Source of the DNA: Acidobacteriota bacterium
GTDB lineage: Bacteria; Acidobacteriota; Vicinamibacteria; Vicinamibacterales; UBA8438
Assembly (NCBI GenBank): GCA_015659035.1
Contig: DQNS01000112.1
Span: 598-64,597, forward strand
Reading direction: 5' to 3'
Length of the DNA: 64,000 nt
The stretch's first letter is position 1. Every line of letters starts with the position of its first letter. Position numbers and translations under genes: made by a program. A model generated the notes under the pieces. That model made no database searches and had not been told where the DNA came from. It saw only the letters and a list, made by a program, of their open reading frames with translations. This document shows positions 17,954 to 62,240 of the stretch, piece after piece.

Positions 17954-17982
17954 GAAGGACTGCCTCCTGTCTCCTTCGTGTG
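17954..17982 (+). repeat. CTCCTGY heptad-family repeat, copy 1
   Basis: GAAGGACTGCCTCCTGTCTCCTTCGTGTG lies between two minus-strand genes. Confidence 0.7.
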
Positions 17983-17986
17983 GGAC

Positions 17987-19972
17987 CTATCCCCCGAGTA
18001 ATGGCATCGCGCGCCGCTGCAGCACCTCCTGCACGGCCCGATGCGCCTCGAGGATGGCGGCGTCGGTGTGCGGGCTCGCCGCGGCGTCCGAGTTCGCGAT
18101 CGTGATCTGTCCGAACGGTTGGCGACCGACCACGCAGGGGCGTTCGTTGGTCGAGGTGAACACCCACTCCATTGGGTCATACAGGCTGTTGTAGGTGTAC
18201 GCGTACCCGTGCGGCCAGCGGTTCACCGAGATCGCCACGATGTCCCGCCCCGGATCGAACCCGCCGCCGCCCAGCACCCGGCCGAGCTGGTCCCGCAGCT
18301 TCCGCTCGAAGGTCGCGAAGGTGGTGCTCAGCAGATCCTGACGCCCGATCCGATGTTGCTCCCGGCGTGGCTTGCCGGGCGCGGCCGGATAGCGGGCCAG
18401 GCTGAGCACGATCGGTTCCTCGGGCGATTCCGCATGACGCAGGTCACCCAGGCTGACCGCCTCGTCGAGCGCCACCCGCGTGTGATACATGCTCGGTGTG
18501 CTGACACGGCTGACGCCGAGGTTCTGGAACGCGGTCCAGTTGCGGATCGCGATGCTCGTGTAGACCAGCGGTCCTTTCACCCCGAAGGCGAGCGCCTCCT
18601 TTTGCCGATCCGGCAGCTCCGGCACCAGATACGGGATCACCGTGTTCCAGCAGGCCATCACACACGCGCGAGCCCTGACCTGGTGGGTCTGGCCATCTCG
18701 GACGTAGCTGACCTCGACGTCCCGAGCCGACCCGGCGCCCCGGTGCCGCACGTTGACGACCGTGCTGTTCAGCCGGACCCGGACCGTCTGGTGTGCCCGG
18801 TCCAGCACTCCGTAGTCGACACGGGCGGTACCGACGTCCTCCTGCGTGGTTCCCGGCACCGCCGGCGGGATCAGCGAGCGCACCAGCAGCCGGGTGAGCG
18901 TCGCGTTGCCGTCGGGGAAGTGCACCGACCCGCCACCGGGGCGCTGGCGACCGTGGTGCCCACCCGGCAGGTCCGCGAGCACGCCGTCCGGGGTCGGCTC
19001 GAGGTTCATGCCGCCGAACCCCGGCTGCCCCGTCTCCCAGGCGAACAGCGCCGGCAGCGCATCGGCCCCGACGGCGAAGCTGCCGTTGCCGGCGCCCTGG
19101 AAGAACCACATCACCTGTGGGTCGACCTTCACGACGTTCAGCATGAAGTCGGTGTAGCTCATCTTCGCGAGCCGGGCCTTCTTCTCGGCCGATGACAGCG
19201 CCGGCAGGTAGTCTGGCAACGTCCCGTTGTAGAGCGCCAGCAGGTCCCGCTGCGCCGTGGCCGACAGCGGCGTCTTTGAAAGGAACTCCGCCGTGTAGCC
19301 CCGCCCGCGGTCGCGCTTCACGAACCGGTCCGCGCCCCAGGTCTCCTTGTCGAAGAAGTAGGCCGACCCCAGCCCCAAGCGGCGATACAAGCCGCGGCTC
19401 TCGGCGTTGTTGCTGCGGAACCGGTCGAGGTCGATGCCGATCGCGTTGAGCAAGGCCCGTGACGGGGCGTTGTAGCGCTCGGGCGACTCGATGTTCAGCG
19501 TCCCGCCGTTCAGCGCCAGCATCCGCCCGTTGTAGTGGAACTCGTTCCGCTTGGCATGTCCGCCAAAGTCGTCGTGGTTGTCGAGCACCAGCACCCGGGC
19601 CTCGCGGCCGACATGCGTGATGAAGAAGTGCGCGGCGGCCAGCCCGCTGATTCCGCCCCCCACGATCACCAGGTCATAGTGTTCCCCGGTGTCCCTCGCC
19701 CCCGACAGGTCCCAGCCCCGCTGGTCGCGCATCTGGTGCCCGACTTCCCACGAGCCGTCGTGGCTGCCGCGCATGCCGGTCTCGGTGGGCGGGTAGTAGT
19801 CGGGCGCCTGCTCCGGCGCGGGCGGCTGCCCGAGCGCGCTCGCCCACCGTGGCAGGACCAGCGCGCCGCCGACCGGGATCGCGACGCCGTTGATGAAGTC
19901 GCGTCGGGTGATCCGCCGGTGCATGCCAAGGTCGCGGTCGGACGCGTCCGCTATGCTGGTCATGTTGTTCAT
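17987..19972 (-). CDS. Tat-exported FAD/NAD(P)-binding oxidoreductase (spermidine-dehydrogenase-like amine oxidoreductase)
   Basis: Internal ATG of ORF 17987..20503; alternative starts at 19963 and 19924. It has a twin-arginine motif (HRRITRRDFINGV) and a dinucleotide fold (YDLVIVGGGISGLAAA). Confidence 0.75.
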   Translation of the reverse strand: MNNMTSIADASDRDLGMHRRITRRDFINGVAIPVGGALVLPRWASALGQPPAPEQAPDYYPPTETGMRGSHDGSWEVGHQMRDQRGWDLSGARDTGEHYDLVIVGGGISGLAAAHFFITHVGREARVLVLDNHDDFGGHAKRNEFHYNGRMLALNGGTLNIESPERYNAPSRALLNAIGIDLDRFRSNNAESRGLYRRLGLGSAYFFDKETWGADRFVKRDRGRGYTAEFLSKTPLSATAQRDLLALYNGTLPDYLPALSSAEKKARLAKMSYTDFMLNVVKVDPQVMWFFQGAGNGSFAVGADALPALFAWETGQPGFGGMNLEPTPDGVLADLPGGHHGRQRPGGGSVHFPDGNATLTRLLVRSLIPPAVPGTTQEDVGTARVDYGVLDRAHQTVRVRLNSTVVNVRHRGAGSARDVEVSYVRDGQTHQVRARACVMACWNTVIPYLVPELPDRQKEALAFGVKGPLVYTSIAIRNWTAFQNLGVSRVSTPSMYHTRVALDEAVSLGDLRHAESPEEPIVLSLARYPAAPGKPRREQHRIGRQDLLSTTFATFERKLRDQLGRVLGGGGFDPGRDIVAISVNRWPHGYAYTYNSLYDPMEWVFTSTNERPCVVGRQPFGQITIANSDAAASPHTDAAILEAHRAVQEVLQRRAMPLLGG

Positions 19973-20083
19973 GATGAATGGTGACCTCTCGAAACCCGAA
20001 ACCCACCAGCTGTCATCTCTCGCCAGCCTGCTTATATACCACCAACCTTGCCCGGATGGGTCCAGGCAGGCGATCATCGCCTC

Positions 20084-21124
20084 ATGGAGACCGCCATCGA
20101 CCGCGCACTTGCCCGTTATCCGCGCGAGACCCTGACCCGTACGCCGACGCCGTTCGACCGGCTGCCGCACGCCGGCGCGCGGCTCGGCTTGGACCTCTAC
20201 CTGAAACGGGACGACCTGACCGACCTGGCGCTCGGAGGCGACAAGCCACGCAAGCTCGAATACGAAGTGGCGAAGGCCCGGGCGTCCGGTGCGACGATTC
20301 TGGTCACCTGCGGCAGCGCGCAGAGCAACCATGCGCGTCTGACCACCGCGGCAGCCCGCCGGGTCGGGCTCGGCGCCGCGCTCGTGCTGAGCCGCGACGA
20401 CCGCCGGGTGTTCCAGGGGAATCTGCTGACCGTCTACCTGATGGGCGCCGACGTCCGGTTCGCCGACACCGACGACCATTGGGATCTCGAACGTCATGCG
20501 CACGCGCTGTGCGACGAGCTGCGTGCCGCCGGCGAGACGCCGTACTACATCCCGGTGAGCGGCTCGACGCCGCTGAGCTGTCTCGGGTATGTCCGGGCCG
20601 GTCTCGAGCTGGCTGACCAGATTGCCACGGTGCAGTTGCAGCCGGCCGCCGTCTACACCCCGTTCGGGACCGGCGGCATCTTCGCCGGCGTGCTGACGGC
20701 GCTGCGCGAGCGTGGCATCGGGTGTCCGGTCATCGGGATCAGCGTGAATCGCACCGTCCCCCGGTGCCGCGAGAGTCTCGACACCTGGTGGGCCGCCATC
20801 GGCAAGCTACTCGATCTCGACCCGGCCCGGCCTCAGGGACCGATCGAAATTCACGACCGGTTCGTCGGCCAGGGCTACGGCGATGCGACGGACGACTGCC
20901 TCGACGCCATCCTGCTGATGGCGGAAACCGAGGGGGTCCTGCTGGACCCGGTCTACTCAGGGAAGGTGTTCGCCGGTCTGTGCGCGCACCAGCACGAGGG
21001 ACGCTGGCAGCCGGACCAGCTGGTGGTGATGCTGCACTCGGGTGGGACGCCCGCGCTCTTCGCCTATCACGAGGAGATCCGCGCGCACCTCGTGAAGCGT
21101 GGGGTCGACGTGCCGGGCTGCTAG
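20084..21124 (+). CDS. PLP-dependent ACC deaminase / D-cysteine desulfhydrase family protein
   Basis: METAIDRALARYP...LYLKRDDLTDLALGGDKPRKLEY contains the family lysine motif. Later segments are GSAQSNHAR and HSGGTPALF. Confidence 0.8.
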   Translation: METAIDRALARYPRETLTRTPTPFDRLPHAGARLGLDLYLKRDDLTDLALGGDKPRKLEYEVAKARASGATILVTCGSAQSNHARLTTAAARRVGLGAALVLSRDDRRVFQGNLLTVYLMGADVRFADTDDHWDLERHAHALCDELRAAGETPYYIPVSGSTPLSCLGYVRAGLELADQIATVQLQPAAVYTPFGTGGIFAGVLTALRERGIGCPVIGISVNRTVPRCRESLDTWWAAIGKLLDLDPARPQGPIEIHDRFVGQGYGDATDDCLDAILLMAETEGVLLDPVYSGKVFAGLCAHQHEGRWQPDQLVVMLHSGGTPALFAYHEEIRAHLVKRGVDVPGC

Positions 21125-21208
21125 ACCCTTGGACAGCGTTTGTCGTGACAATTAAGTCAAGTTTTGATCCCGTTTGTTTCGCTCGCACCACCGGGCGGTG
21201 CTGAAGAA

Positions 21209-21252
21209 GGCGGCGAAGCCCTCAGGTGTCCTCCTGCCTCCTTCGTGTCTCC
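21209..21252 (+). repeat. CTCCTGY heptad-family repeat, copy 2 (overlaps the 3' end of the acyl-CoA synthetase ORF)
   Basis: GGCGGCGAAGCCCTCAGGTGTCCTCCTGCCTCCTTCGTGTCTCC. On the minus strand it supplies the odd C-terminal tail ...ETRRRQEDT. Confidence 0.7.
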
Positions 21253-22856
21253 AGCTCCCTGGTCGAGATCTCACGCATCCGATACTTCTGCACCTTGCCG
21301 GTCACCGTCATCGGAAACGCGTCCACGATCTTCCAGTACCGGGGAATCTTGTAGGTGGCGATGGTGCCGCGGCAGAAGGCGGTCAGCCCCTTGGCGTCGA
21401 CGCTGGCGTTCGGTTTCGGTTTGACCCACGCCATGACCTCTTCGCCGTAGCGGGCCGACGGCACGCCGATGACCTGGGCATCAGCCACGTCGGGGTGCGT
21501 GTAGAGGAACTCCTCGATCTCGCGCGGGTACACGTTCTCGCCGCCGCGAATGATCATGTCCTTGATCCGGCCGACGATACTGACGTAGCCGTCGTCGTCC
21601 ATCGAGGCCAGGTCGCCGGTGTGCATCCACCGTCCCGCGTCGATCGCCGCGGCCGTGGCGGTCGCGTCGTTCCAGTAGCCCAGCATGACGCAGTAGCCAC
21701 GGGTGCACAGCTCGCCGCTCTCGTTGCGCCCCAGCACGCGTCCGCTCTCAGGGTCGACGATCTTGACCGCGACATGGGGATGCACCGACCCGACGGTCGT
21801 CACCCGCTTCTCGACCGGGTCGTCGACCCGGGTCTGCGTCGAGACCGGCGAGGTCTCGGTCATCCCGTAGCAGATCGTGATTTCGGGGATGTGCATCCGC
21901 TCGCGCACCTGCTTCATCACCTCCACCGGGCAGGGCGACCCTGCCATGACGCCGGTGCGAAGCGACGAGAAGTCGGTGCGATCGAAGTCGGGGTGGTCGA
22001 GCTGCGCGATAAACATGGTCGGGACGCCGTAGAGCGACGTGCAGCGTTCCGCTTCAATGGCCGCGAGCGTGCCTCTCGGATCGAACCCCTCGCCGGGCAC
22101 GACGATGCACGCCCCGTGGCTGGTACAGGCCAGATTGCCGATGACCATGCCGAAGCAGTGGTAGAACGGCACCGGCACGCACACCCGATCGACTTCGGTG
22201 TAGCGGAGCACCTCGCCGCAGAAGAAGCCGTTGTTCAGGATGTTGTGGTGCGACAACGTCGCGCCCTTGGGCGCGCCGGTGGTGCCGGAGGTGTACTGGA
22301 TGTTGATCGGGTCGTCGAACGTCAGGCTGGCCTCGCGCGCCGCCAGCCGGTCGTCGTCGATCGACCCGCTCTCGTCGAGCAATGTCGTCCACTCGCCGTC
22401 GAGAACCACAGCCTCCCGCAGCGCGGGGCACTCGGGGCGGACCCGGTCCAGAATCTCCACGTAGTCGGTCTGCCGGAACCGGCGCGCCAGCAGCAACAGC
22501 GTCAGCCCCGATTGTGCGAGCGCGTGACCGAGCTCCTGCGCCTTGTAGGCGGGATTGATGTTGACCAGGATCGCGCCGACCCGGGCGGTGGCGTACTGGA
22601 TGACGACCCACTCGAAGCGGTTGGGGGACCAGATGCCGACCCGGTCCCCCTTCTCGATGCCACGCGCCAGCAGCGCCTTGGCCAGCGTCGTTGTGGTGTC
22701 CCAGAGCTGTCGGTAGGTGGCCCGATACTCCTGGGCGGGCGCCACCAGCGCGTCCCGGTCGCCAAAGCGATCCACGGTGCGTCGGAGATTGGCGCCGATC
22801 GTCTCGCCCAGAAGGGCGACGGGGCTGGCGCCGTGCACGTAGGACGGCAAGCTCAT
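21222..22856 (-). CDS. AMP-dependent acyl-CoA synthetase/ligase
   Basis: It has the AMP-binding signature [11 protein letters not shown], the motif [23 protein letters not shown], and a C-terminal [10 protein letters not shown]. Confidence 0.9.
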
Positions 22857-22962
22857 GTGGGGTGGGCAGCATACTGTGCGGCAGAGGGCAGATGCAAAAG
22901 GCGTTCAGCCCAGACACGCGTCAGGTCGCCGGGCTCGCGCCGAGGCAGGGACGGTACGGGAG

Positions 22963-22979
22963 CGCTAGACTCCTTGAAC
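22963..22979 (+). repeat. 17-nt exact match to one arm of the 45483..45575 element
   Basis: CGCTAGACTCCTTGAAC equals the reverse complement of 45563..45579. Confidence 0.8.
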
Positions 22980-23073
22980 GTAGGGACGGTCTGAGGCGGC
23001 GCCTCGTTAGTGATAGCATCCGTGCAGTCTGGCGGTCGGCTGTGGCACATATCGCACATCGTGACGAGGCCCG

Positions 23074-24228
23074 GTGAACTCTGACACTCCGCCCTCACGC
23101 GGTCTCGACCTGACCCCACGCCAGCGGACGACAATCGCTTCGGCCCTGACGATTCTGGGCGTCGTGGTGATCCTCGGCGCGGTCGGCTTGCTCACCTGGC
23201 TCGTCTCGGCCTTCCTTCGCTACTTCTCCAGCGTCTTCCTCCCGCTTGCGGTCGGCGGGGTGAGCGCGATGGTCTTCAGGCCCTACTACCAGCTGCTACA
23301 GAAGAAGCTTCGGTTGCCCATGCCGCTGGCCGTGGCCGCCGTCTTCCTGTCTTTACTCGTGCCGCTCGGTGCCTTCGGCGGGTTCTTCGGTGAGCGGATC
23401 GCCGATCAAATCTCGGAGATGGTCGCGAAGTTCCCGGCGTGGTGGGAGGGCGTCACGTCCCAGGCGGCCGAGCGCTGGCCCGACGTGCGGGAGTTCCTCG
23501 AGACCAACCCCTGGGCCGTGCGGGCGCGCGAGGCGCTGGAGGGTCAGGGTGGCGCGATCGCCACGGGTCTTCAGGAGGTCGGCCAGCGTGCGCTGTCCGC
23601 GGGACGCGGACTCCTGGCGGCGGTCACGGGTGTGCTCTCCTGGTTCATGGTCCCGGTCTACTTCGCCTTCTTCCTGGCGGTGGGCGGTTCGGTGTCCGGC
23701 GATCTGGGACAGCACTTCCCGTTTCTCAAACCGGAGACCCGCCGCGATGTCGTGTTCCTGCTGAGGGAGTTCGTCAACATCCTCGTCGCCTTCTTCCGGG
23801 GACAGCTGATCGTCGCCTTCCTGCAGGGGTTGCTGTTTGCGATCGGGTTCAGCCTGGTCGGGTTGCAGTACGGGTTCGTGATCGGGTTGATGCTCGGGTT
23901 CCTCAACATCATTCCGTATCTCGGCAGCATGATCGGGCTGGGTGTCGCCGTGCCACTGGCGTACTTCCAGTCTGGCGGCGGCGGGACGACCGTCGTGCTC
24001 GTCCTCGTCACGTTCGCCGTCGTGCAGTCCATCGAGGGCTACGTGCTGACGCCACGCATCATGGGGGACAGGACGGGACTCCACCCGATGGCAATCATCG
24101 TGGCCGTCTTCTTCTGGGGCGCCGCGATCCAGGGGATGCTGGGGATGATCCTCGCCATTCCGTTGACTGCATTCCTGGTCGTTTTCTGGCGACTGCTGCG
24201 CGAGAAGTACATCACCGAGTTGGTCTAG
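23074..24228 (+). CDS. AI-2E family transporter (PerM-like permease)
   Basis: GTG start. It has about 8 hydrophobic segments, and NIIPYLGSMIGL...VQSIEGYVLTPRIMG is typical of the AI-2E/UPF0118 family. Confidence 0.8.
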   Translation: MNSDTPPSRGLDLTPRQRTTIASALTILGVVVILGAVGLLTWLVSAFLRYFSSVFLPLAVGGVSAMVFRPYYQLLQKKLRLPMPLAVAAVFLSLLVPLGAFGGFFGERIADQISEMVAKFPAWWEGVTSQAAERWPDVREFLETNPWAVRAREALEGQGGAIATGLQEVGQRALSAGRGLLAAVTGVLSWFMVPVYFAFFLAVGGSVSGDLGQHFPFLKPETRRDVVFLLREFVNILVAFFRGQLIVAFLQGLLFAIGFSLVGLQYGFVIGLMLGFLNIIPYLGSMIGLGVAVPLAYFQSGGGGTTVVLVLVTFAVVQSIEGYVLTPRIMGDRTGLHPMAIIVAVFFWGAAIQGMLGMILAIPLTAFLVVFWRLLREKYITELV

Positions 24229-24491
24229 CAGGATGTGGTGAACGTCCCGCGTGGCACCGGGAGGACGGCGTCCTCGATCTCCGGTCCGTCCAGTGGGCCC
24301 TCCGGTAGCGAGCGAATCGTCCCGTCCACCCGGATTGACGGCGGCAACCCGGCGACCAGCAGCAGATCGCTGGCCCCGCGTTCGGTCACGATCGTCAGCC
24401 AGTGCGCCAGCCGGGACGGGCCGCCGGCGCCGTCGCTCTGCCAGGCATTCAGCGCGTCGGCGAGCCGATCGATGTCGGGGGCCTTTTTCAT
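24225..24491 (-). pseudogene. orphan N-terminal fragment of a PilT/GspE-type secretion ATPase
   Basis: MKKAPDIDRLADAL...ERGASDLLLVAGLPPSIRVDGTIRSLPEGPL matches the PilT N-terminal ASDLHL..G.PP..R..G pattern. The frame stops after about 88 aa with no Walker A. Confidence 0.55.
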
Positions 24492-24558
24492 GACTGGCAG
24501 GCTGCCGAAAACGTTCGGCTGCTCCTCGGGCTTCAGCCGGGTGCGCTCTCCACACACA

Positions 24559-25539
24559 TCACGTCAGCGACAATAGGCTCCGCCGGAGGGTCTCCGAGAC
24601 GAGCGATATCTTGTATCGGTTGCGCGCCAACGCTCGCGCACCCTCGACCGCGGCGGCGCCGGCGGCGGCGGCCAGCTCCGGGGTGAGGCGCTTGCCCACC
24701 AGCAGTCGTTCGACCGCCGCGACCCGCCAAGGAATCGGTGCCACGCCGCCCAGGGCGATCGCAGCGCGTCGGCAGACCCCGGGGTCGTCGCCGTCGTCGT
24801 CCAAGGTCAGGACCACCGCCGTGCTGACGACCGCGTGGGTCCACGCCTCGCGGTCCCTCACCTTGGTGTAGACGCTGCGCGCGCCGGGGCGCGGCGGTAG
24901 CGCCAGCTCGGTGACGATCTCGCCCGGCCGCAGCACGTTCTCGCGGGACACATCCTCGCTGGGCAGGACAAAGAACTCCCGGATGGGAAGCCAGCGGTCG
25001 CCGGCGTCGCCGACGATGTGGATCTGCGCGTCGAGCGCGACCAGCGCGGGCGCCGTGTCCGACGGGTGCACGATGAAGCTGGGGCCGCCACCTAGGATCG
25101 CGTTGAACTGATTTTCCCCCGTCCGGGAGAAGCATCGGGTGCCGCCGTGCTTGTAACAAGGAAAGCCCTGACGAAAATACCAGCACCAGGGGCGCTGGGT
25201 CAGGTTGCCGGCCAGGGTACCGGCGTTCCGGATCTGCGGTGTGCCCACCGACCCGGCCGCCTCGGCCAGCACCGCGTAGCGATCGCGGATCACAGGGTGC
25301 CGACTGAGCGCGCTGAGGGTGATCATCCCGCCGACCTGGACACCGCCGCCCGGCCGCGGCGCGATGGTGTCGAGCCCCGAGAGCTGCGTCAACCGGACGA
25401 GCCGGTCGGGTGCGGCCAGATCGTCCTTGATCATCCCGAGCAGATCGCTGCCGCCACCGACCGGCGCGGCACCCGTATCCCGCAACGCGGCGGTCGCGGC
25501 AGCGAGCGAGTCGGGGCTCATGTGCGCGAACCGTTTCAC
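24559..25539 (-). CDS. FAD-binding subunit of a xanthine dehydrogenase/aldehyde oxidoreductase family enzyme (PaoB/CoxM-like)
   Basis: The GTG at 25539 overlaps the upstream stop (GTGA); an alternative ATG is at 25521. GGGSDLLGMIKD...AGTLAGNL is typical of molybdopterin dehydrogenase FAD-binding subunits. Confidence 0.8.
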   Translation of the reverse strand: MKRFAHMSPDSLAAATAALRDTGAAPVGGGSDLLGMIKDDLAAPDRLVRLTQLSGLDTIAPRPGGGVQVGGMITLSALSRHPVIRDRYAVLAEAAGSVGTPQIRNAGTLAGNLTQRPWCWYFRQGFPCYKHGGTRCFSRTGENQFNAILGGGPSFIVHPSDTAPALVALDAQIHIVGDAGDRWLPIREFFVLPSEDVSRENVLRPGEIVTELALPPRPGARSVYTKVRDREAWTHAVVSTAVVLTLDDDGDDPGVCRRAAIALGGVAPIPWRVAAVERLLVGKRLTPELAAAAGAAAVEGARALARNRYKISLVSETLRRSLLSLT

Positions 25540-28235
25540 GCTAGCGTCTCCAGGATCCGATCGCGCGAGAACGGCAGCTCGTTCAATCGCCGCCCAGTCG
25601 CGTTGAAGATCGCGTTGCCGATCGCGGCCACCACCGGGATGATCGGCGGTTCGCCGATCGCCTTGGCCCCGTACGGTCCATAGGCGTCTTCCGGCTCCAC
25701 GAAGTGGACCTCGATCTCCGGGGTGTCCAGATGCGTCATCACCCGGGCGCCGTAGTAGCCGGGGTTGACCGGGATACCGGTGGCCCGGTCGTAGAGCAGC
25801 TCCTCGTGCAGCGCCATGCCGATGCCGATCGTGACACCGCCCTTCACCTGGCTGGCGGCGGTCAGCGGGTTGAGGATGCGGCCGCTCTCGTGCACGGCCA
25901 CATACCTGACCACCCGGACGTGCCCGACCGGCATGTCCACCGCGAGCTCGACGAAATGCGCAGCGCTGGCGTAGCGAGCCATCCCGTCGATCCGTGGATT
26001 CGTCGTTGCCTCGGCCACGAGCACCGCGTCGCCTCGGGGCGGACCCTGGGCGGACAGCTGCTGCGTGAGATCGGCAGCCGCCGCGAGCACGGCGTCGCCG
26101 GTCTGCACCGTCGTCCGGCTGCCGGATTCGCCAACCGAATAGGGACAGCGATCGGTGTCGCCCCAGACCACTCTCACGTCGTCGAGACGCATCTCCATCG
26201 CCTCGGCGGCCAGTAGTGCCATCGTCGTCTTGGCGGCGGTGCCGATGTCGGTGACCCCCACGTGGACCCAAAGATGTCCGTCGCCGTCGAGCCGCAGCAC
26301 GGCGCTGCTCCGGCCGGTGCGCGCGCTGAAAGCACCGGTCGCCATCCCGACACCACGTCGCACGGCTGGCTCCCCGGCGCCGGCGCGGCGCCATCGTGAC
26401 GCCCAGCCGAAGACCTCAGCCCCCCGCTCGATGCATTCTCTCAGCGCCCAGCTCGTGTAGGGCGTCTCGTCCATGTAGGCGCGGCTGACGTTCTTCAGGT
26501 GGAACGCCACCGGGTCGATCTCGAGCTCGTGGGCCATCTGGTCCATCATCGACTCGATGCCCCAGACCCCCTGCGGATACGCCGGTCCGCGGAAGTTCGC
26601 GCTGACCGTCATGTTCGTGTAGGTCGGGTGCACCACGCGCCGGACGTTGGGGCAACGGAATAGCTCGATCCCCGCGATGCCGCCGCTGCTCTTGCGGTGC
26701 GGACCGAGCCCGCTATAGCCGCGCAGCTCGATCGCCTTCAGGGTGCCGTCTCGGGTTGCGCCCACACGGTAGTACTGCCGCGTGGGCCAGCGGCCGTGCA
26801 CGCCGAGGAAATCCTCTTTCCGCGTGTACTCCAGCTTGACGGCGTTACCGGTCTCGCGGGCCAACACCGCCGCGATCAGGTCCGAGTCCTGACACTGGTT
26901 CTTGTTCCCGAACCCGCCGCCCATGTACTCGCAGACGACGCGGACGTCTGCCGGCGGCAGGTCGAGGTCGCGCGCCAGGTCGCGCTGGCAGTTCGAGACC
27001 CCCTGTGTCGGCGTCCAGACGGTCAGCCGGTCGCCGTCCCACCGGGCGACGCTGACACGCGGCTCGAGCTGAGCGTTGTTGATGTGCTTCGAGGTGAAGG
27101 CGTCCTCCAGCACCACATCCGACGCTGCGAATCCCGCGTCGAGTTCGCCACGCTCGTAGACCTCGGGCTCGCGCACGCCGCGGCCGCGCGTCGCTAGATT
27201 CCCGCCCGGCTGTATCTCCACGGCGCCGGGGCGCAACGCCTCTTCCGGGTCGAGCACGAAGTCCAGCGGCTCGTAGTCGACCACAATCGCCTTGAGCGCC
27301 TCCTCGGCGGTGTGACGGTCGACGGCCGCCACCGCCGCCACCGGGTCGCCCACGAACCGCACCGGGTCGTTGAAGAGAAACCGGTCGTTCCGCGAATCGC
27401 CGCTCGTCCAGACGACGTCGCAGGTGTTACGGCTGATCACGGCGCGCACGCCCGGTAGCCGCTCGGCGGGCCGCGTGTCGACGCGGCGGACCCGGGCGTG
27501 CGGATGGGGGCTGCGCAGCACCCGCGCGTACAGCATGCCGGGGAGTCGCACGTCGCCCGTATAGCGCGCCCGGCCGGTCACCCGTTCCGGGGCGTCGATA
27601 CGGGGGGTGAGGACCCCCACCGTCGTCAGCGCCCGCGCCGAGGCCGCGTCGGGCGAGGCGCCGTCGAGCACCGCCTCGACATACCGGTTGTAATTCGAGC
27701 AGCGGCAGATGTTGCCGACCAGGCCCTCGCGGACCTGGTCCCTGGTGGGGTTCGCGGTGTCGTCGAGCAGGGCGCTAGCCGACATCAGCTGGCCCGCGGT
27801 GCAGAACCCGCACTGCGGACCGTCGTGTTCGACGAACCGTTGTTGCAGCGGGTTCAGCCGGTCGCCGTCGGCCAGCCCTTCGACGGTGGACACCTCCCGG
27901 CCGTCGGCCCAGACCGCGAGCTGGCTGCAGGCGTAGACGGTGGTGCCGTCGAGCCGGACCGTGCAGGCGCCGCACTCGCCCCGGTCGCAGCCAACCTTGG
28001 TTCCGGTCAGACCCAGGTGGTCGCGCAGAACCTCGGCCAGTGTCCAGCGGTCCTCGACCTCGAGGGCGTGTGTCTCGCCGTTGACACGCAGAGAGATACG
28101 CGTACGTGGAGCGGGGTCAGCCGGCTGGTCGCCGACCGGCTGCCCCGCGCCACGCATCTTCAGCGTGGGCAGGGTCGTGGCGGCGGCGAGCGCCCCCGTA
28201 CGTTCGATGAACGAGCGTCGCGAGATGCGGCCCAT
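25536..28235 (-). CDS. Tat-exported fusion of a [2Fe-2S] subunit and a molybdopterin-binding subunit (xanthine dehydrogenase/aldehyde oxidoreductase family, PaoA-PaoC-like)
   Basis: The twin-arginine signal is MGRISRRSFIERTGALAAA. The two 2Fe-2S motifs are CDRGECGACTV and CGFCTAG...CRCSNY. They are followed by about 680 aa of a large-subunit-like sequence. Confidence 0.85.
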   Translation of the reverse strand: MGRISRRSFIERTGALAAATTLPTLKMRGAGQPVGDQPADPAPRTRISLRVNGETHALEVEDRWTLAEVLRDHLGLTGTKVGCDRGECGACTVRLDGTTVYACSQLAVWADGREVSTVEGLADGDRLNPLQQRFVEHDGPQCGFCTAGQLMSASALLDDTANPTRDQVREGLVGNICRCSNYNRYVEAVLDGASPDAASARALTTVGVLTPRIDAPERVTGRARYTGDVRLPGMLYARVLRSPHPHARVRRVDTRPAERLPGVRAVISRNTCDVVWTSGDSRNDRFLFNDPVRFVGDPVAAVAAVDRHTAEEALKAIVVDYEPLDFVLDPEEALRPGAVEIQPGGNLATRGRGVREPEVYERGELDAGFAASDVVLEDAFTSKHINNAQLEPRVSVARWDGDRLTVWTPTQGVSNCQRDLARDLDLPPADVRVVCEYMGGGFGNKNQCQDSDLIAAVLARETGNAVKLEYTRKEDFLGVHGRWPTRQYYRVGATRDGTLKAIELRGYSGLGPHRKSSGGIAGIELFRCPNVRRVVHPTYTNMTVSANFRGPAYPQGVWGIESMMDQMAHELEIDPVAFHLKNVSRAYMDETPYTSWALRECIERGAEVFGWASRWRRAGAGEPAVRRGVGMATGAFSARTGRSSAVLRLDGDGHLWVHVGVTDIGTAAKTTMALLAAEAMEMRLDDVRVVWGDTDRCPYSVGESGSRTTVQTGDAVLAAAADLTQQLSAQGPPRGDAVLVAEATTNPRIDGMARYASAAHFVELAVDMPVGHVRVVRYVAVHESGRILNPLTAASQVKGGVTIGIGMALHEELLYDRATGIPVNPGYYGARVMTHLDTPEIEVHFVEPEDAYGPYGAKAIGEPPIIPVVAAIGNAIFNATGRRLNELPFSRDRILETLA

Positions 28236-28396
28236 GCCTCGCTCAAGCCTCGATCCGCCAGGGGAGACTGATGCCGGCCCTGTCCGCCTGGGACTCTCAG
28301 TGTGTCCTGGCTCAGGGAGATGGTGCAGAATAGCATGAACACGCTGTGACCTGCGGCCCCGGAAACAACGGTCACGTGTGTGGAGGAGTTAGACAC

Positions 28397-29143
28397 ATGA
28401 TTACCACCAGGACTCGAATCGTGCAGACCGTCGGTGCGCTGCTGCTGGCGTGCGGGCTGTTCGTCCCGGCCGGCGCGGCGCAGGCGCAGACACTCGACGA
28501 GATCATCGAGGCCAGCCTCGAAGCGGCCGGCGGCCACGAGGCGATGGCCCGCATCACCAGCGTGCGGCAGACCGGGACGTTCATCATGAGCACCGACTAC
28601 GGCGACCTGGCCGGTGACACCGAGCGCGTCATCATCCCGAACCAGAAGTTCTATCAGTCACTGGACAGCGACCTGTTCCAGCAGACCCAAGCTTGGAACG
28701 GCACCTCCGGCTGGCAGTCTGACAGCATGCAAGGGATGACAGACCTGGAGGGGCAGCAGGCGGAGATTCTCGTGGCGCAGACGGTGCTCCATGTCTTTCT
28801 GCCCTACAACACGCCGGGTGCCCCGGAGTATCGCAAGCTGGACGACTCCGAGGTGGGGGGGCGGCCTCATCACGTGGTGGGGTTGTCCACCGAGACCCTT
28901 GAATTTGAGGTCTTCGTCGACGCGGAGACCAAGCTGGTCTCACACGTGAGCTTCGAAGCCGACGTTCCCCCGGCCGGTGCGATCACCATCACCGCCAAGT
29001 CCTCAGGCTATGAAGAGCACGGCGGCGTGATGCTGGCGACACTCACCTCGCTCGACATTCCGGGGGCGGTGACGATCGACACGACATTCACCACGACGGA
29101 GCTCAACATGGAGGTGGACCAGTCGATCTTCGAGAAGCCGTAG
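28397..29143 (+). CDS. hypothetical exported protein (LolA-like fold suspected)
   Basis: Internal ATG after GGAGGAG. MITTRTRIVQTVGALLLACGLFVPAGAAQAQ is a signal peptide. Confidence 0.6.
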   Translation: MITTRTRIVQTVGALLLACGLFVPAGAAQAQTLDEIIEASLEAAGGHEAMARITSVRQTGTFIMSTDYGDLAGDTERVIIPNQKFYQSLDSDLFQQTQAWNGTSGWQSDSMQGMTDLEGQQAEILVAQTVLHVFLPYNTPGAPEYRKLDDSEVGGRPHHVVGLSTETLEFEVFVDAETKLVSHVSFEADVPPAGAITITAKSSGYEEHGGVMLATLTSLDIPGAVTIDTTFTTTELNMEVDQSIFEKP

Positions 29144-29171
29144 GGGCGAGGCGCCGGGCACAAGGGCGCCG

Positions 29172-30008: not shown

Positions 30009-30117
30009 CGATGGGATTCTACATCCGGGCGGCATATCCGGACGGATCGTGCCACCCGGAAATTTCGGTGCCTCTAGCCTCCCGGTCCCTCGATTTTCAA
30101 CCGTTGAAGGATCAGTC

Positions 30118-30169
<52 letters not shown>

Positions 30170-30189
30170 GTGCTAATGTAGGCATCGAT

Positions 30190-34043: not shown

Positions 34044-34048
34044 TCTCT

Positions 34049-34093
34049 GAGGAGACAGAAGTCAGGAGACAGGAGAAGCCGGAAGACTTCGCC
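34049..34093 (-). repeat. CTCCTGY heptad-family repeat, copy 4 (purine strand on +)
   Basis: GAGGAGACAGAAGTCAGGAGACAGGAGAAGCCGGAAGACTTCGCC. Its reverse complement aligns with copies 3 and 6, including the GCGAAG module. Confidence 0.8.
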
Positions 34094-34190
34094 ATCTATT
34101 CTGTTTCTGGCCTCAGCTGTTGCTCGAGAGGCAACGGTCGGTGTTGACCTGGGCGGACCGCACTTCTGGAAGCGGCGCAGCCCACCTATT

Positions 34191-34232
34191 TCCTTCTGTC
34201 TCCTGCCTCCTGCCTCCTGTCTCCTTCGTGTC
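34191..34232 (+). repeat. CTCCTGY heptad-family repeat, copy 5, abutting the fdnI start codon
   Basis: TCCTTCTGTCTCCTGCCTCCTGCCTCCTGTCTCCTTCGTGTC is followed directly by ATG 34233. Confidence 0.8.
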
Positions 34233-35704: not shown

Positions 35705-35782
35705 CAGGACCCGAGTCGCGAATCCCGGGTCCATGACCTGGACCGCAGGCTGAGGGAATTCACTCGCATCAAGGGGTAGTCC

Positions 35783-52131: not shown

Positions 52132-52214
52132 GCCCGACGCCGTTCGTCGTTCACAGTCGTGGCGGTCCTGACCCTGGTACGGAGTGATCGGATCCGCCTC
52201 CGCCCGGGACCGAT

Positions 52215-53973: not shown

Positions 53974-53985
53974 AACCGTCTGCCC

Positions 53986-56783: not shown

Positions 56784-56904
56784 TTCGCCTTGTGCGACTC
56801 AAGGCACTTACTCGACTCTGGCCCGAGCCTGCCGGGCCGTCGGTCCGCGCGCAGGCCGCCACCGAGAGAATCAGGATCCCCGCGACTGCGACGACGAAGC
56901 AGAA

Positions 56905-56945
56905 GGCGCGAAACCCTCAGGCTTTCTCCTGTCTCCTGTCTCCTC
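56905..56945 (+). repeat. CTCCTGY heptad-family repeat, copy 6
   Basis: GGCGCGAAACCCTCAGGCTTTCTCCTGTCTCCTGTCTCCTC lies between convergent genes. Confidence 0.8.
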
Positions 56946-56954
56946 GGGAGTTCC

Positions 56955-58253
56955 TCAATCCTGCAATCCCGACGGCAACCGCGGCGAAGCCAGCAGCCCC
57001 GCGAAGGCCGCCCATCGATTCTCGGGCCGGCCGAGGCTCCGCGCCTCGACGAACGCGGCGACGAGATCCTTGCCGAGGTTGTAGTTGATGACGTAGCTCC
57101 GGTACTGGTCGAAGAACCGGGTGCGTTGCTCGGCCCGCGCCGGCGCCATCATCGCGTATCGCGTCAGCCAGTCGGCGGCGGCGGCTCGGTCGATGTCGCC
57201 GTTCAGATACCGGCGCGCTGCTTCGTTGCCCGCGTAGTCGAGTTGTCCGACGAGCGCCTGCACCTGGTAGTACTCTGTCGCGCGCGATGCGTCCAGCCCC
57301 GCGGCCGGGAACAGCACCTCCCGCTCGAACGCCAGCCGTTCCTCGTTCGGGAACGCGACCTCGATACCGTAGTTGGCGGTGCCCTCCGCGATCAGCGACT
57401 GTGGGGAGAAGAGCGCGTAGACGGAGAACTCGGGCCATCCCCGTTCGCGGACCAGGTGCTGCTCGAGCAGCACGTTGTACACGTGATGCCCTGGGTAGCC
57501 TTCGTGACACGCCAGATCGATCGCGCGGTCGATGTAGATCGGCAGGTCGGTGTTGACCTGGATCAGGCTGCGGAAACCGCCCTGATACCAGTTGTAGCCG
57601 CTCCACGACTTGTCGGTGACGTACTCCACGGTGAAGCGCTCGCCGGCGGGCAGCTCGACATGCTCCTGTGTGCGCCGCCGGCATTCGGCGATGGCCGCCT
57701 CGAACACCTGGTCGAGCCGGTCCGATGGGATGACGAAGTCCACGCGGAATGCGCCGTACCGATCGCCCAGCGTGCCCTGCCCCGGGAGCGCCCGTGCGAG
57801 CCGGGTCAGGGTGTCCTCGAAGTGCGAGTCGGGGTGGCGCGGCGCGACCGCGTCGTAGAGGGCGCTCGATTCGTCGTCGAACGCAAGCGACCGCCCACCC
57901 AGCATCCCGACCCGTGCCTGCAGCGCGTCGAGCTGCCGGCGCAGATACTGGTGCCGCAGCTGTACCAGTTCATCCGGGTCCGGGACGGTCGCGGTCCGAT
58001 CCAGTTCCGTGATCAGCGCGCCGGCCTCGGCGCCGATCTGGTCGAGCGTCAGCGGCCGCCCTTCGGCTTCGGCGCGCCACGCCTCCGGACCGTAGTACGC
58101 GTCGACGTAGTCGCCATCGTGCTGCCCCATTGCCAGCACCAGCTTCACGTAGCGTTCGGCGAGGTCGTTCATGTCGCTGTTCGATTGTGCCTGTCCGGCC
58201 GCGACCCCGGTCACGATCATGACGGCGAGCACGAGATGGCGGGGGTGGGTCAT
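56955..58253 (-). CDS. DUF885-like exported protein (HEGYPGHH motif)
   Basis: MTHPRHLVLAVMIVTGVAAGQAQS is the signal peptide. LACHEGYPGHHV is as in DUF885 metallopeptidase-like proteins. Confidence 0.7.
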   Translation of the reverse strand: MTHPRHLVLAVMIVTGVAAGQAQSNSDMNDLAERYVKLVLAMGQHDGDYVDAYYGPEAWRAEAEGRPLTLDQIGAEAGALITELDRTATVPDPDELVQLRHQYLRRQLDALQARVGMLGGRSLAFDDESSALYDAVAPRHPDSHFEDTLTRLARALPGQGTLGDRYGAFRVDFVIPSDRLDQVFEAAIAECRRRTQEHVELPAGERFTVEYVTDKSWSGYNWYQGGFRSLIQVNTDLPIYIDRAIDLACHEGYPGHHVYNVLLEQHLVRERGWPEFSVYALFSPQSLIAEGTANYGIEVAFPNEERLAFEREVLFPAAGLDASRATEYYQVQALVGQLDYAGNEAARRYLNGDIDRAAAADWLTRYAMMAPARAEQRTRFFDQYRSYVINYNLGKDLVAAFVEARSLGRPENRWAAFAGLLASPRLPSGLQD

Positions 58254-59356: not shown

Positions 59357-62193
59357 CGGGAGACGACGAACCAACGATGGGGAGCAGGGTCAACTTCGCG
59401 TTCGTGCGGGCGCTGGCCAAGCGGGATCTGCGACTGTATTTTAACAGCCCGTCCGGCTACGTCTTCATCACGCTGTTCATCTTCCTGAGCGCGGCCGCCG
59501 CGTTCTGGCAGGACCGGTTCTTTCTCGACAACCTGGCCAACCTCGACCAGCTCAACCGGCTGTTTCCGTTCTTGTTGCTGCTGTTCATTCCGGCACTCAC
59601 GATGTCGGTCTGGTCGGAGGAGCAGCGGCTCGGCACCGCCGAGCTGCTCTTCACGCTGCCGGCGACCGACCTCGAGATCGTGCTCGGCAAGTATGCCGCG
59701 ACGCTCGGCATCTACAGCGCAGCGCTCGTGCTGGCGGTGCAGTACGTGCTCGTCCTTTGGTTCCTCGGGAGCCCGGATCTTGGGCTGATGTTCGGCAACT
59801 ATGTCGGCTACTGGCTGGTGGGTGCCGCGCTGGTGCCGGTCGGCATGCTGGCGTCGCTGCTGACGGCGAACATGACGGTGGCGTTCATCCTGGGCGCGGT
59901 GTTCTGCGGGGCGGTCATCTTCATCGACACCCTGGTGGGGTCGTTCAGCGCTGACGCCAGCCGGCTGGTGGCGCCGCTCAGTGTCTTCAACCCGTTCTGG
60001 GACTTCTCGAAGGGCGTGCTGACCGTCTCGGGGCTGCTCGCCTTCGTGTCGGTGGCCGGTTTCTTCCTCTACCTGAACACGCTGATGGCCGGCCGGCGCC
60101 ACTGGCCGCGCGAGGCCGACGGCTACCCGATGTGGTCGCACCACACGGTGCGCGCGGTGGCGCTGGCGGTGGCGCTCGTGGCGGGCAACGCCGTGGTGGC
60201 ACGCGTCACGTTCCTGCGGCTCGACGTGACCGCCGAGCGGTTGTCGTCCTTGAGCGACGAGACCCGCCGGCTGATCGCCGCGCTGCCGGACGACCGGGCG
60301 GTGTTCATTCAGGCGTTCCTGAGCCCGGTGGTGCCGGAGCCGTTCGTGCAGGCGCGGTCGAACCTCATCGGCATCCTCCAGGAGATCGACGCGCTGGGGG
60401 GGCCGAAAGTCGAGGTGCTAATCCAGGACACCGAGCCGTTCACCGACGCCGCCGTCAGCGCGCGCGAGAAGTTCGGGATCTTGCCGCGCGCGATGCGCGA
60501 CCTCAGTGGTGGGCGGTCGTCGATCGCCGAGGTGTTTCTCGGGGTGGCGTTCACCGCCGGCGCCGAGCAGCAGGTGATCCGGTTCTTCGACCGTGGGTTG
60601 TCGACCGAGTACGAGATCGTCCGCACGATCCGGGTCGTCGCCGGCAGCGAGCGGAAACGGGTGGGCGTGGTCGACACGATGGCGAAGATTTTCGGTGGCC
60701 AGAATCTGACCAGCCAGCAGCAACTGCCGCAGTGGTCGGTGGTCAACGAGTTGCGCAAGCAATACGAGGTGGTGGAGGTCAACGCCGAGTTCCCGATCCC
60801 CCCCGACATCGACGCGATCCTGGTGGCGCTGCCGTCGTCGATGCAGACCGACCAGATGTCCAACGTCGCCGACTACATCCGTCAGGGGAAGCCGGCGATG
60901 ATCCTGGTCGACCCGATTCCGGCCGTGAATCCGACGCTGTCGCCGACCGAGTGGGTGGGCGACGGCAACCCGTTCACCTACCCGCCCGGCAGCCCGCGCC
61001 CCGGGCCGCGCGGGAACGTGCGGCAGTGGGTCCGCGACCTGGGGGTCGACTGGGAGCCGACCCGCATCGTCTGGGACAGCTACAACCCGCACCCGGACCT
61101 GTCGCAGATGCCGTTCGAGGTGGTGTTCCTCGGCGCCGGGAACGAAAACGAGGCAACGTTCAACCCGGACGTGGACGTCACCAAGGACCTGCAGGAGCTG
61201 GTGTTTCTGTATCCGGGGTTCCTGCTGCCGGTGGATGACGACGACGCGGGCATCGAGTTCGAGCCGCTGCTGCGGTCCGGTGTCGTCTCGGGACAGAGCG
61301 GCTACTTCACGCTGGTCCAGCAGACCTTCTTCGGGCCGTCGATGGTGCCCAACCCGACGCGGCAGCAGGACGAGCTGGACTTCATCCTCGCCGCGCGGGT
61401 CCGCTCGGCTGGCCCGGCAGGGAGTGACCCGCCACCGACCGGATCGGACGAGCCCGACTCGGTCGAGCCCGAATCGGACGAGACTGCCGACGGGGAAGAG
61501 ACCGCAGACGAAGAGACCCAAGACGAAGAGTCCCAAGAGGGTGAGGACGACACTCCAGAGTCGCCCTGGGTCACCGAGGGCCCGCTCAATCTGGTGGTCG
61601 TTGCCGACCTCGACTTCATCAGCGAGCAGTTCTTCCAGATTCGCGAGGTGGCGCCAGGCAACCTGAACTTCGACAACGTCACCTTTTTCCTCAACGCGAT
61701 GGACTCGCTGCTCGAGGACGACTCGTTCATCGGGCTTCGCAGTCGCCGTGCCCGCCACCGGACCCTGGAGCGGGTCGAGGCGCAGACCGCCGAGTTCGTC
61801 GAGCAGCGGACGCTCGACGAGCAACAGGCGGAGGAAGAGGCGGAGCAGGCGCTGACCGATGCGCAGAACCGGCTGAACGAGCGTGTGGCCGAGGTGCAGA
61901 ACCGGACCGATATCGACGCGCAAGCCAAACAGATCATGGCGCGCAACCTCGAAGAGGTCGAGAACCGGCGCCTCAGCGTGCTGTCGACCAACATCGAAAC
62001 CGAGAAGGACACAAAGAACCGGGCCAGTCTCGAGCGGATGGAGACCCAGGTCCGGCGGATTCAGAGCACCATCAAGACCTTCGCGATTCTGCTGCCGCCG
62101 GTCCCGGTGTTCGCGTGGGGTATGTGGACCTTCGTGCGACGCCAGCGGCGCGAACGCGAAGGCGCCGCCGCGGCCAGGCGGCTGCGGGAGTAA
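59353..62193 (+). CDS. fusion of an ABC-2 permease (GldF-like) with a GldG-like auxiliary domain; acidic insert, C-terminal coiled coil and TM anchor
   Basis: The ATG overlaps the upstream stop (ATGA). The N-terminal 250 aa has 6 TM segments. It is followed by a GldG-like region (VFIQAFLSP...), the tract DEPDSVEPESDETADGEETADEETQDEESQEGEDD, and a terminal TM. Confidence 0.7.
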   Translation: MTGDDEPTMGSRVNFAFVRALAKRDLRLYFNSPSGYVFITLFIFLSAAAAFWQDRFFLDNLANLDQLNRLFPFLLLLFIPALTMSVWSEEQRLGTAELLFTLPATDLEIVLGKYAATLGIYSAALVLAVQYVLVLWFLGSPDLGLMFGNYVGYWLVGAALVPVGMLASLLTANMTVAFILGAVFCGAVIFIDTLVGSFSADASRLVAPLSVFNPFWDFSKGVLTVSGLLAFVSVAGFFLYLNTLMAGRRHWPREADGYPMWSHHTVRAVALAVALVAGNAVVARVTFLRLDVTAERLSSLSDETRRLIAALPDDRAVFIQAFLSPVVPEPFVQARSNLIGILQEIDALGGPKVEVLIQDTEPFTDAAVSAREKFGILPRAMRDLSGGRSSIAEVFLGVAFTAGAEQQVIRFFDRGLSTEYEIVRTIRVVAGSERKRVGVVDTMAKIFGGQNLTSQQQLPQWSVVNELRKQYEVVEVNAEFPIPPDIDAILVALPSSMQTDQMSNVADYIRQGKPAMILVDPIPAVNPTLSPTEWVGDGNPFTYPPGSPRPGPRGNVRQWVRDLGVDWEPTRIVWDSYNPHPDLSQMPFEVVFLGAGNENEATFNPDVDVTKDLQELVFLYPGFLLPVDDDDAGIEFEPLLRSGVVSGQSGYFTLVQQTFFGPSMVPNPTRQQDELDFILAARVRSAGPAGSDPPPTGSDEPDSVEPESDETADGEETADEETQDEESQEGEDDTPESPWVTEGPLNLVVVADLDFISEQFFQIREVAPGNLNFDNVTFFLNAMDSLLEDDSFIGLRSRRARHRTLERVEAQTAEFVEQRTLDEQQAEEEAEQALTDAQNRLNERVAEVQNRTDIDAQAKQIMARNLEEVENRRLSVLSTNIETEKDTKNRASLERMETQVRRIQSTIKTFAILLPPVPVFAWGMWTFVRRQRREREGAAAARRLRE

Positions 62194-62204
62194 GGAGAGC
62201 ACCC

Positions 62205-62240
62205 AAGGAGTCAGGAGGCAGGAGTCAGGAGAAGAAGGAC
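62205..62240 (-). repeat. CTCCTGY heptad-family repeat, copy 7 (purine strand on +), just upstream of the next start codon
   Basis: AAGGAGTCAGGAGGCAGGAGTCAGGAGAAGAAGGAC ends 7 nt before ATG 62248. Confidence 0.8.

Follow-up and report, generated by a model that had tools for sequence, protein, structure and literature searches.

A dispersed element of heptad array and hairpin at gene ends in marine Vicinamibacterales (Acidobacteriota)

The stretch of DNA analysed here, referred to below as the window, comprises 64 kb (G+C 67%) of contig DQNS01000112.1 from an Acidobacteriota bacterium of the order Vicinamibacterales, numbered from its first letter. Open reading frames (ORFs) were judged by G+C at third codon positions (GC3), by Pfam matches, and by gene calls on colinear metagenome contigs; no tRNA genes were found within the window. 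Proteins identical to those it encodes occur in many marine and deep-sea metagenomes, including those of the Von Damm and Piccard vents. Between its genes, a formate dehydrogenase operon (fdnGHI) among them, lie seven tracts built from tandem CTCCTGY heptads. All seven are copies of a single extragenic element, dispersed and lineage-specific, that belongs to marine Vicinamibacterales. We read the element on its GGAG strand, the other strand carrying CTCCTGY (CUCC in RNA). So read, a full copy consists of a stop codon, ~11 nt, an array (NCAGGAG)n with n of ~3–6, a hairpin GAAGCC-GGAG-GGCUUC, and then GCC-R-N-CUUC. A preliminary description of this DNA had listed the heptad tracts but not the GAAGCC/GGCUUC hairpin, the spacing of ~11 nt after stop codons, the inverted dimers, or the orientation rule.

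All seven intervals hold the tandem heptads that had been described, and the family is more frequent than composition predicts. With up to 1 mismatch allowed, CTCCTGYCTCC occurs 19 times in the window against 3.6 ± 2.0 times in 100 dinucleotide-preserving shuffles, none of which reached 19. Period-7 arrays were called with Tandem Repeats Finder (TRF) at 30134–30169 (5.1 copies, 100% matches), 34050–34076, 34192–34225, 56925–56944, and 62206–62231. A covariance model (R1), for which 38 metagenome sequences served as seed and no window sequence was included, detects each of the seven copies at E<1 and no other site in the window, with scores of 55.2 bits (copy 4), 41.1 (copy 6), 35.5 (copy 2), 33.0 (copy 5), 31.9 (copy 3), 21.4 (copy 1), and 18.7 (copy 7). 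The seven related copies of the preliminary description are all recovered in this way, with the correction that copies 4 and 5 are not independent, each being half of the same inverted dimer. Its shared 3′ end, CCTCCTG(T/C)CTCCTTCGTGT, is present in copies 1, 2, and 5, and its shared 5′ module, GCGAAG-N-CTCCTG, in copies 2, 3, 6 and, inverted, 4. This similarity outside the heptads survives covariance modelling and extends into the conserved hairpin module. Every copy is intergenic or falls within the final codons of a gene, again as described, and for five of the seven a gene that has the GGAG strand as its sense strand terminates immediately next to the array.

Copy 1 (17936–17982, − strand) is a degenerate solo element of about two heptad units, reading CACACGAAGGAGACAGGAGGCAGTCCTTCGAC on the − strand and matched by R1 at E=0.002. 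Its array begins 9 nt past the TAG (17987–17989) of a FAD/NAD oxidoreductase gene on the − strand, and the copy lies ~110 nt upstream of the start of a tannase gene. Copy 2 (21203–21255, − strand), also of about two heptad units, sits in a convergent spacer in which the opposing PALP gene ends at 21124. Its array encodes the final codons (ETRRRQEDT) of an acyl-CoA synthetase gene on the − strand, a tail that the earlier inspection had correctly attributed to the repeat; the TGA of this gene (21222–21224) falls within the hairpin loop region CCTGAGGGCTTCGCC.

Three copies belong to the formate dehydrogenase region. Copy 3 (30109–30169, − strand) has 5.1 perfect heptads and a remnant, GCGAAGCCTTCG. 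It occupies the divergent fdhD/fdnG spacer, its array ending 21 nt before the fdnG ATG (30190), and the sense strand of the fdnG leader is the CU-rich strand. Copies 4 and 5 form the inverted dimer that fills the fdnH–fdnI spacer. The left half, copy 4 (34047–34102, + strand), has the top score in the window (E=9e-12); its array begins 4–6 nt past the fdnH TGA (34041–34043) and its hairpin reads GAAGCC-GGAA-GACUUC, followed by GCC. The central spacer (34103–34164) is looped out in the predicted long hairpin. The right half, copy 5 (34165–34232, − strand), reads CUUCUGUCUCCUGCCUCCUGCCUCCUGUCUCCUUCGUGUC on the mRNA strand and directly adjoins the fdnI AUG (34233) in the opposite orientation; no SD-like (Shine–Dalgarno-like) sequence was found upstream of this AUG. 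The predicted dimer helix has a ΔG of −93.9 kcal/mol (z = −3.1); it extends past the heptads and takes in both the fdnH UGA and the fdnI AUG, whose regions pair with each other.

The same operon shows several features of its own. fdnG is a selenoprotein gene, in which an in-frame TGA (30766–30768; context ...HQARI*HSPTVASL...) splits the ORF of the formate dehydrogenase alpha subunit, and gene callers split fdnG in two on all metagenome contigs. No Rfam family matched at its gathering score over the whole window. At E≤1 over 17000–63000, the only credible match was SECIS_3 in fdnG (30763–30821), which starts at the TGA and scores 62.8 bits against a gathering score of 63. At the fdnG/fdnH junction (33170–33185), stop and start overlap as GTGATG in the window strain. 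Other strains (metagenome locus L001, 8890–8950) have 46 nt more at this junction, where FdnG ends in a different C-terminus and a 30-nt spacer holds a hairpin GGGGC-GAA-GCCCC; GAAGCC-type 14-nt repeats occur here in a sister species (contig ctg258101l, loci L129, L146, and L147), whose FdnI is 89% identical. Locus L006 carries a perfect inverted duplication of the fdn region, mirrored around ~6490, which is most likely an assembly artefact.

Copy 6 (56896–56946, − strand; hairpin GAAAGCC-UGA-GGGUUUC) lies in a convergent spacer, its array beginning 8–10 nt past the TGA (56955–56957) of a 432-aa gene of unknown function on the − strand and the facing amidohydrolase gene ending at 56783. Length differences at this copy between scaffolds are mostly runs of N, that is, assembly gaps. 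Such runs stand directly beside the copy in L136, L139, and L145 (locus ~4540–4700), and the element therefore breaks or confuses assemblies; the 60-nt insertion of L142 (CCGGACGAACGTGCGTGGG...), immediately beyond the hairpin side, is real. Copy 7 (62205–62251, + strand) has 3.7 units and has lost the hairpin module. It begins 10–11 nt past the TAA (62191–62193) of an ABC_transp_aux gene and reaches the ATG (62248) of a DUF4340 gene, occupying the whole of the 54-nt spacer between them. The ABC_transp_aux (GldG-like) gene contains, close to its 3′ end (61439–61538), in-frame tandem repeats of 15 and 18 nt that would encode a repetitive protein stretch.

The preliminary description had proposed scanning relatives, and there the family proved abundant. 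Metagenomes were scanned with the pattern GCGAAGCC-N6-11-CTCCTGNCTCC, which at least 120 loci matched; among the matches listed are 93 distinct loci with at least two heptads on contigs of G+C > 0.6. In most matches listed, the free gap of the pattern reads CTCC-GGCTT, and the GGCTT(C) arm, which lies outside the search pattern, is still present. Together with the first C of the array, the gap sequence completes the hairpin GAAGCC-CUCC-GGCUUC. R1 gives a further 38 secondary copies on metagenome contigs that are not exact matches to the search pattern. The consensus on the GGAG strand is NCAGGAGRCAGGAGRCAGGAG-AAGCC-GGAG-GGCUUC-GCC-G-N-CUUC. The hairpin GAAGCC-NNNN-GGCUUC, with GG/CC added past one A·G mismatch, amounts to 8 pairs, at the short end of the range of repetitive extragenic palindromes (REPs). 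Minimum free energy folds of 93 solo copies gave the hairpin in 50 and left arrays ~42% unpaired; with G+C-rich flanks, these folds are noisy and unusable. Some solo copies start with GGCGAA and end with TTCGCC, a 6-nt terminal inverted repeat. TCTTCAG was considered as a conserved tail after the hairpin and rejected, being present in only about a quarter of copies.

Neighbouring genes were tabulated for 138 distinct copies, with genes called crudely as long ORFs of high GC3; 124 copies had a scorable neighbour on the array side. For 92 of these 124, that neighbour is the stop codon of a same-sense gene, the GGAG strand being the sense strand. For the remaining 32, it is the start of an opposite-sense gene, abutted by the CU-rich strand, a minority pattern that window copies 3 and 5 follow. 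Distances from stop codon to array fall between −22 and 21 nt in 76 of the 92 copies, and most of these are 8–12 nt with a mode of 11, while the hairpin side shows a broad spread of distances to the next gene (median ~70 nt). Among the stop codons, TGA occurs 40 times, TAG 25, and TAA 9. A re-anchored profile of the region between stop and array shows only a weak stretch of purines and then YCC; a subset of copies carries RTGCTCGA there. A small ORF starting at the RTG of this motif was dismissed, as the variable number of heptads shifts its reading frame. Convergent genes flank 24 of the 124 copies.

Copies less than 200 nt from each other make up twelve pairs, each inverted, in the order array-hairpin..hairpin-array. 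Every one of them is predicted to fold into a long helix in which the arrays pair with each other, and five, including copies 4/5, bridge two consecutive co-directional genes, reaching from the stop codon of the first to the start codon of the second. Solo halves make up 114 of the 138 copies. Copies are found inside housekeeping operons, namely fdnGHI, leuCD (L137 13070–13117, in the leuC–leuD spacer), and purBSQ (L156). In the last of these (L156 182–1492), every spacer among purB, purS, and purQ has an element, and 1.3 kb hold a solo copy together with two inverted dimers; the locus shows that the family colonises housekeeping operons.

A scan of genome contigs for the bare heptad array hit mostly cyanobacteria along with many other phyla, and the heptad alone therefore does not define the family. 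Among 100 taxon-named heptad loci, the only full composite belongs to a Vicinamibacterales metagenome-assembled genome (L098, 59.9 bits), all others scoring ≤37.5. More generally, R1 scores Vicinamibacterales composites at 55–72 bits against ≤37.5 for bare arrays in other phyla. The heptad is thus widespread and the composite lineage-specific. Density is about one copy per 9–10 kb, with 7 in the 64 kb of the window and, by R1, 7–8 in ~56 kb of the sister species. R1 found no copies in 2 × 20 kb of two more distant relatives, L131 and L132.

Copies 2, 6, and 7 have counterparts at orthologous places in the sister species. That of copy 2 lies at L146 11639–11700. That of copy 6 (L147 4571–4619, 54.9 bits) stays at the 3′ end of the 432-aa gene, the gene on the other side differing between species. 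At the place of copy 7 (L147 9899–9986), there are 5.9 units compared with 3.7, and a second, inverted CTTCTGA array lies just before the ATG; from the sequences, CUUCUGA can pair with NCAGGAG via one G·U pair. A CTTCTGA-type array also takes the position of copy 3 (L129 5992–6018). Copies of GGCGAAGCCCTCNGG-N-CTCCTG occur at non-orthologous places in this species as well. Between strains, copy 7 has an extra GGAGACA heptad in L139, and copy 2 has three extra heptads in P0152, P0154, and P0156, which lengthen the synthetase by 7 aa (AGGRRQE) with the frame kept. The arrays behave as microsatellites, in which strains and species differ by gain or loss of whole 7-nt units, even as a copy can keep its position from one species to another. 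In the sister species, the fdnH–fdnI spacer consists of CTGAAGC heptads over 38 nt; it is 16 nt with CGCACGC ×2.3 in L132 and an ATGA overlap in L131. Copy number in the fdnH–fdnI spacer did not vary across ten metagenome contigs, which are essentially one strain.

Other period-7 arrays occur in the intergenic DNA of the sister species, including GTCAGAA ×8.1 (leuC/leuD), CTGAAGC ×5.7 (fdnH/fdnI), GCCCAAA ×5 between HMGL-like (leuA-type) and Iso_dh (leuB-type) genes, as well as CTGTAGC and GGGCTTC (examples at L147 13717–13773, L147 16934–16968, and L129 9959–10000). Most of these other units have a common CCTG/CAGG core. Among 55 strong tandem arrays (TRF score ≥40), 24 have a period of 7 or 14, the remainder being mostly multiples of three. 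In the window itself, a perfect 19-nt tandem duplication (GAGGAACGCCTCGTCTGAT ×2; 12247–12284) lies in the spacer upstream of a beta-lactamase-family gene, with a small GAGG..CCTC hairpin in each unit.

In its genomic behaviour, the element is a REP-like repeat, or bacterial interspersed mosaic element (BIME), fused to a heptamer repeat of the kind called short tandemly repeated repetitive (STRR) sequences. Like REPs and BIMEs, it is a short, high-copy extragenic palindrome located mostly downstream of ORFs, between unidirectional and convergent genes. It often lies a few bases from a stop codon or supplies one, is tolerated inside operons, and frequently forms inverted dimers able to fold into larger hairpins. 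It departs from them in lacking a GTAG/CGTC tag, in having GGAG beside the stem, which is not among published variants (PMC3733652), and in its stem of only 6–8 bp joined to a variable array of 3–6 heptads that has no counterpart in REPs. No REP-associated tyrosine transposase (RAYT) was found among the seven ORFs adjoining copies (PurQ, PurB, PurS, a DUF1552 protein, and three without a family), a search that was not exhaustive. Heptamer repeats are known as STRRs in cyanobacteria and as TAACTGA in Beggiatoaceae, Cyanobacteria, and Bacteroidetes, where a post-transcriptional role is suspected (MacGregor 2015, PMC4679880). These are likewise intergenic 7-nt tandem units, 2–6 or more per set, that lie near gene boundaries and show 7-nt-step indels between strains (PMC4679880). 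The present unit, in contrast, is G-rich and SD-like (CAGGAGN), is joined to a conserved hairpin, and is found in Acidobacteriota; TAACTGA repeats mostly precede a start codon, in Beggiatoaceae in forward orientation directly before starts without an SD, whereas most copies here follow a stop codon in sense (92/124). With MITEs (miniature inverted-repeat transposable elements) the family shares intergenic dimers of 100–300 bp with long inverted ends; unlike MITEs, it consists mostly of solo halves (114/138 copies), the copies inspected have no target-site duplication, and a matching autonomous element is lacking. Integron attC sites were also considered and dismissed, the neighbours being core metabolism genes and the GTTRRRY core absent. 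The SD-like unit, the stop-codon spacing, the sense orientation, the missing GTAG tag, and the lineage together set the element apart from REPs, BIMEs, and the known heptamer repeats. A full-text literature search for the heptad array matched only unrelated eukaryotic papers, and no description of the element was found in the literature on repeats in Acidobacteria. The initial impression that this is no described REP, BIME, or MITE family therefore holds, with no Rfam match and the array absent from the literature found. This kind of element is known; this version of it is undescribed.

The best overall explanation, which we place a little above an even chance, is that this lineage-specific dispersed element has a post-transcriptional role as RNA. 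It would be transcribed with the gene whose end lies next to the array, as part of that gene's 3′ untranslated region (UTR) or intercistronic RNA, and would act post-transcriptionally and not by termination. The footprint of a ribosome on a stop codon has its edge ~12 nt after the stop, and the single-stranded run of SD look-alikes would start just past it. Array and hairpin could then dock the anti-SD end of 16S rRNA, in 30S subunits or post-termination ribosomes, and/or block RNases, as REP hairpins block 3′ exonucleases; the upstream cistron would be stabilised and ribosomes kept on the message. A mechanistic precedent, and only that, is STAB-SD, the 5′ mRNA stabiliser of cryIIIA in Bacillus thuringiensis, where a non-initiating SD look-alike is thought to bind 30S subunits and so protect the mRNA; it is a single copy in a 5′ UTR, as opposed to the multi-copy array after stops seen here. 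In the dimers, the GGAG array may pair with the CUCC array of its partner, looping out the inserted spacer and bringing the upstream stop and the downstream start codon to the foot of one helix. In operons of the fdnH–fdnI type, this could maintain translational coupling or make it depend on translation of the upstream gene. The pairing of CCUCC strands with GGAG that was suggested at the outset is borne out only for the inverted dimers, where CUCC arrays are predicted to pair with the partner's GGAG arrays, and not for the genuine SD sites of genes.

The main rival is that the element is selfish and functionless, a REP- or MITE-like repeat whose transposase is encoded elsewhere, with the orientation and distance rules reflecting only the insertions that survived and the array arising as a slippage-prone by-product. 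We regard this as possible, if somewhat unlikely. Such an element would account for the high copy number, the near-identical copies at non-orthologous places, the weak hairpin covariation, and the presence or absence of copies between relatives (none in L131 or L132, and a lineage-specific copy 4/5 dimer). Its inverted dimers resemble BIMEs or the terminal repeats of MITEs, a subset of copies has the 6-nt GGCGAA...TTCGCC terminal inverted repeat, and known REPs also lie downstream of ORFs and even supply stop codons (PMC3733652). Insertion at random with later selection predicts, however, similar distances on both sides of the element, and the observed distances show a sharp peak at 8–12 nt on the stop side and a broad distribution on the other. 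Copies 2, 6, and 7 are stable across species whose FdnI proteins are ~89% identical, no target-site duplication flanks the copies inspected, the GTAG/CGTC tag of REPs is absent, and a Pfam scan, far from exhaustive, detected no transposase among the seven ORFs adjoining copies. A second alternative dispenses with a dispersed element altogether and has the arrays arise independently as plain microsatellites, by slippage of a local SD (AAGGAG) located ~10 nt past the stop. The arrays do change by whole heptads, copy 7 resembles an SD that has expanded immediately before an ATG, and the heptad array is also found in unrelated phyla, mostly cyanobacteria. The spacers of this lineage hold many other heptad units as well (CTGAAGC, GTCAGAA ×8, GCCCAAA ×5), and 24 of 55 strong tandem arrays have a period of 7 or 14. 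Against this, more than 100 unrelated loci have the array together with the non-repetitive module GAAGCC-NNNN-GGCTTCGCC, R1 separates the composite (55–72 bits) from bare arrays elsewhere (≤37.5 bits), and the 24 of 124 copies in convergent spacers have no downstream gene or SD. Since the hairpin module travels with the array, and given these 24 copies, the element is not simply an expanded SD; microsatellites as the sole explanation are largely refuted, and we consider them very unlikely.

Two further rivals were considered. As a termination element, it would be an unconventional intrinsic terminator on the CTCC strand or a C-rich CUCCUGY loading site for Rho, directed against antisense or convergent transcription. 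Its location at gene 3′ ends, the 24 copies between convergent genes, the order of hairpin and then directly a CU-rich tract on the CTCC strand, and the composition of the antisense strand (~43% C and 14% G for the unit CTCCTGT) are all in keeping with this. None of 13 terminator-like sites (hairpin plus T-run) in 17000–36000, though, coincides with copies 1–5, and the tail after the hairpin is GCC-R-N-CUUC with no U run; the element is not a canonical intrinsic terminator. Typical Rho utilisation (rut) sites are longer than arrays of 20–40 nt. Copies also lie between the obligately co-expressed genes fdnH/fdnI, leuC/leuD, and purS/purQ, and the element is therefore not a strong terminator; we rate termination slightly lower still than independent microsatellites. 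Least probable of all, in our estimate, is that the copies are sites for CsrA/RsmA or another RNA-binding protein, whose GGA motifs, including the GGAG of the hairpin loop, titrate or recruit a global regulator. CAGGAGN does resemble the CAGGA(U/A/C)G repeats of CsrB, and the conserved hairpin displays GGAG, GGAA, or UGAG in its 4-nt loop. S1, Csp, or CsrA has been proposed for TAACTGA heptamers (MacGregor 2015, PMC4679880). Known CsrA sites are, however, more than 7 nt apart (PMC4679880), compared with one GGA per unit at a spacing of 7 nt here, and no regulon logic emerges, the neighbouring genes being of every functional kind.

A post-transcriptional role, for its part, has to be set against several observations. 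Every functional step is an inference. A quarter of copies stand in the opposite orientation, and the copy 4/5 dimer is absent in the sister species, L132, and L131; the dimer is therefore not needed for fdnI expression. Hairpin covariation is almost nil: pairing holds in 91.2% of cells (86 distinct copies) compared with 90.5% in shuffles, and only 5 cells are compensatory (e.g., GAAACC/GGUUUC in L220). The paired fraction barely exceeds the shuffles because the hairpin columns hardly vary, and conservation of the hairpin may therefore reflect recent spread or a constraint on DNA and not RNA structure. Neither a comparison by eye of G·U-compatible with A·C-type transitions nor formal pair counts gave a clear signal of RNA-level selection on the hairpin. 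An SD-like 4-mer (GGAG, GAGG, or AGGA) was present at −17 to −7 in only 27 of 79 called starts, drawn from the window and from L001, L129, L133, L137, and L147, some of which may be wrong calls. The lineage appears to use SD sites for a minority of genes, and SD/anti-SD pairing may therefore matter less here. The anti-SD at the 3′ end of this organism's 16S rRNA is itself presumed.

A more specific form of the post-transcriptional reading can be drawn by analogy with viral termination upstream ribosome-binding sites (TURBS) and shunt elements, and we hold it to be decidedly unlikely. The arrays would be anti-SD docking tracts placed one ribosome footprint past stop codons and would form a genome-wide device for termination-reinitiation or shunting. 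They would retain post-termination ribosomes on the mRNA. An inverted dimer would fold the spacer away, so that a ribosome at a stop codon is passed over the base of the helix to the start codon that follows, and the number of heptads would serve as a dial, tunable by slippage, for the expression ratio of neighbouring cistrons.

The elements appear to mislead gene callers, which give variable N- or C-termini for FdnI, DUF4340, and the acyl-CoA synthetase. In clusters at 90% identity, gene-called lengths are 204, 214, 217, or 228 aa for FdnI (34233–34847) and 465–478 aa for DUF4340 (62248–63645). For the synthetase (21222–22856; 544–559 aa), the spread is partly the translated array, the rest being an N-terminal extension or, in other species, a different C-terminal tail. 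In marine Vicinamibacterales, the copies may also be useful for telling strains apart.

Few parts of bacterial genomes are as poorly understood as small dispersed repeats, and Acidobacteriota are very abundant and little studied; to our knowledge, no small dispersed repeat has been characterised in this phylum. The family offers three clean, testable regularities in the 11-nt stop spacing, the strand rule, and the obligate hairpin-inward dimers that join a stop to the next start in essential operons. If the arrays do engage ribosomes or RNases, they would constitute a genome-wide layer of post-transcriptional control whose strength drifts by microsatellite slippage.

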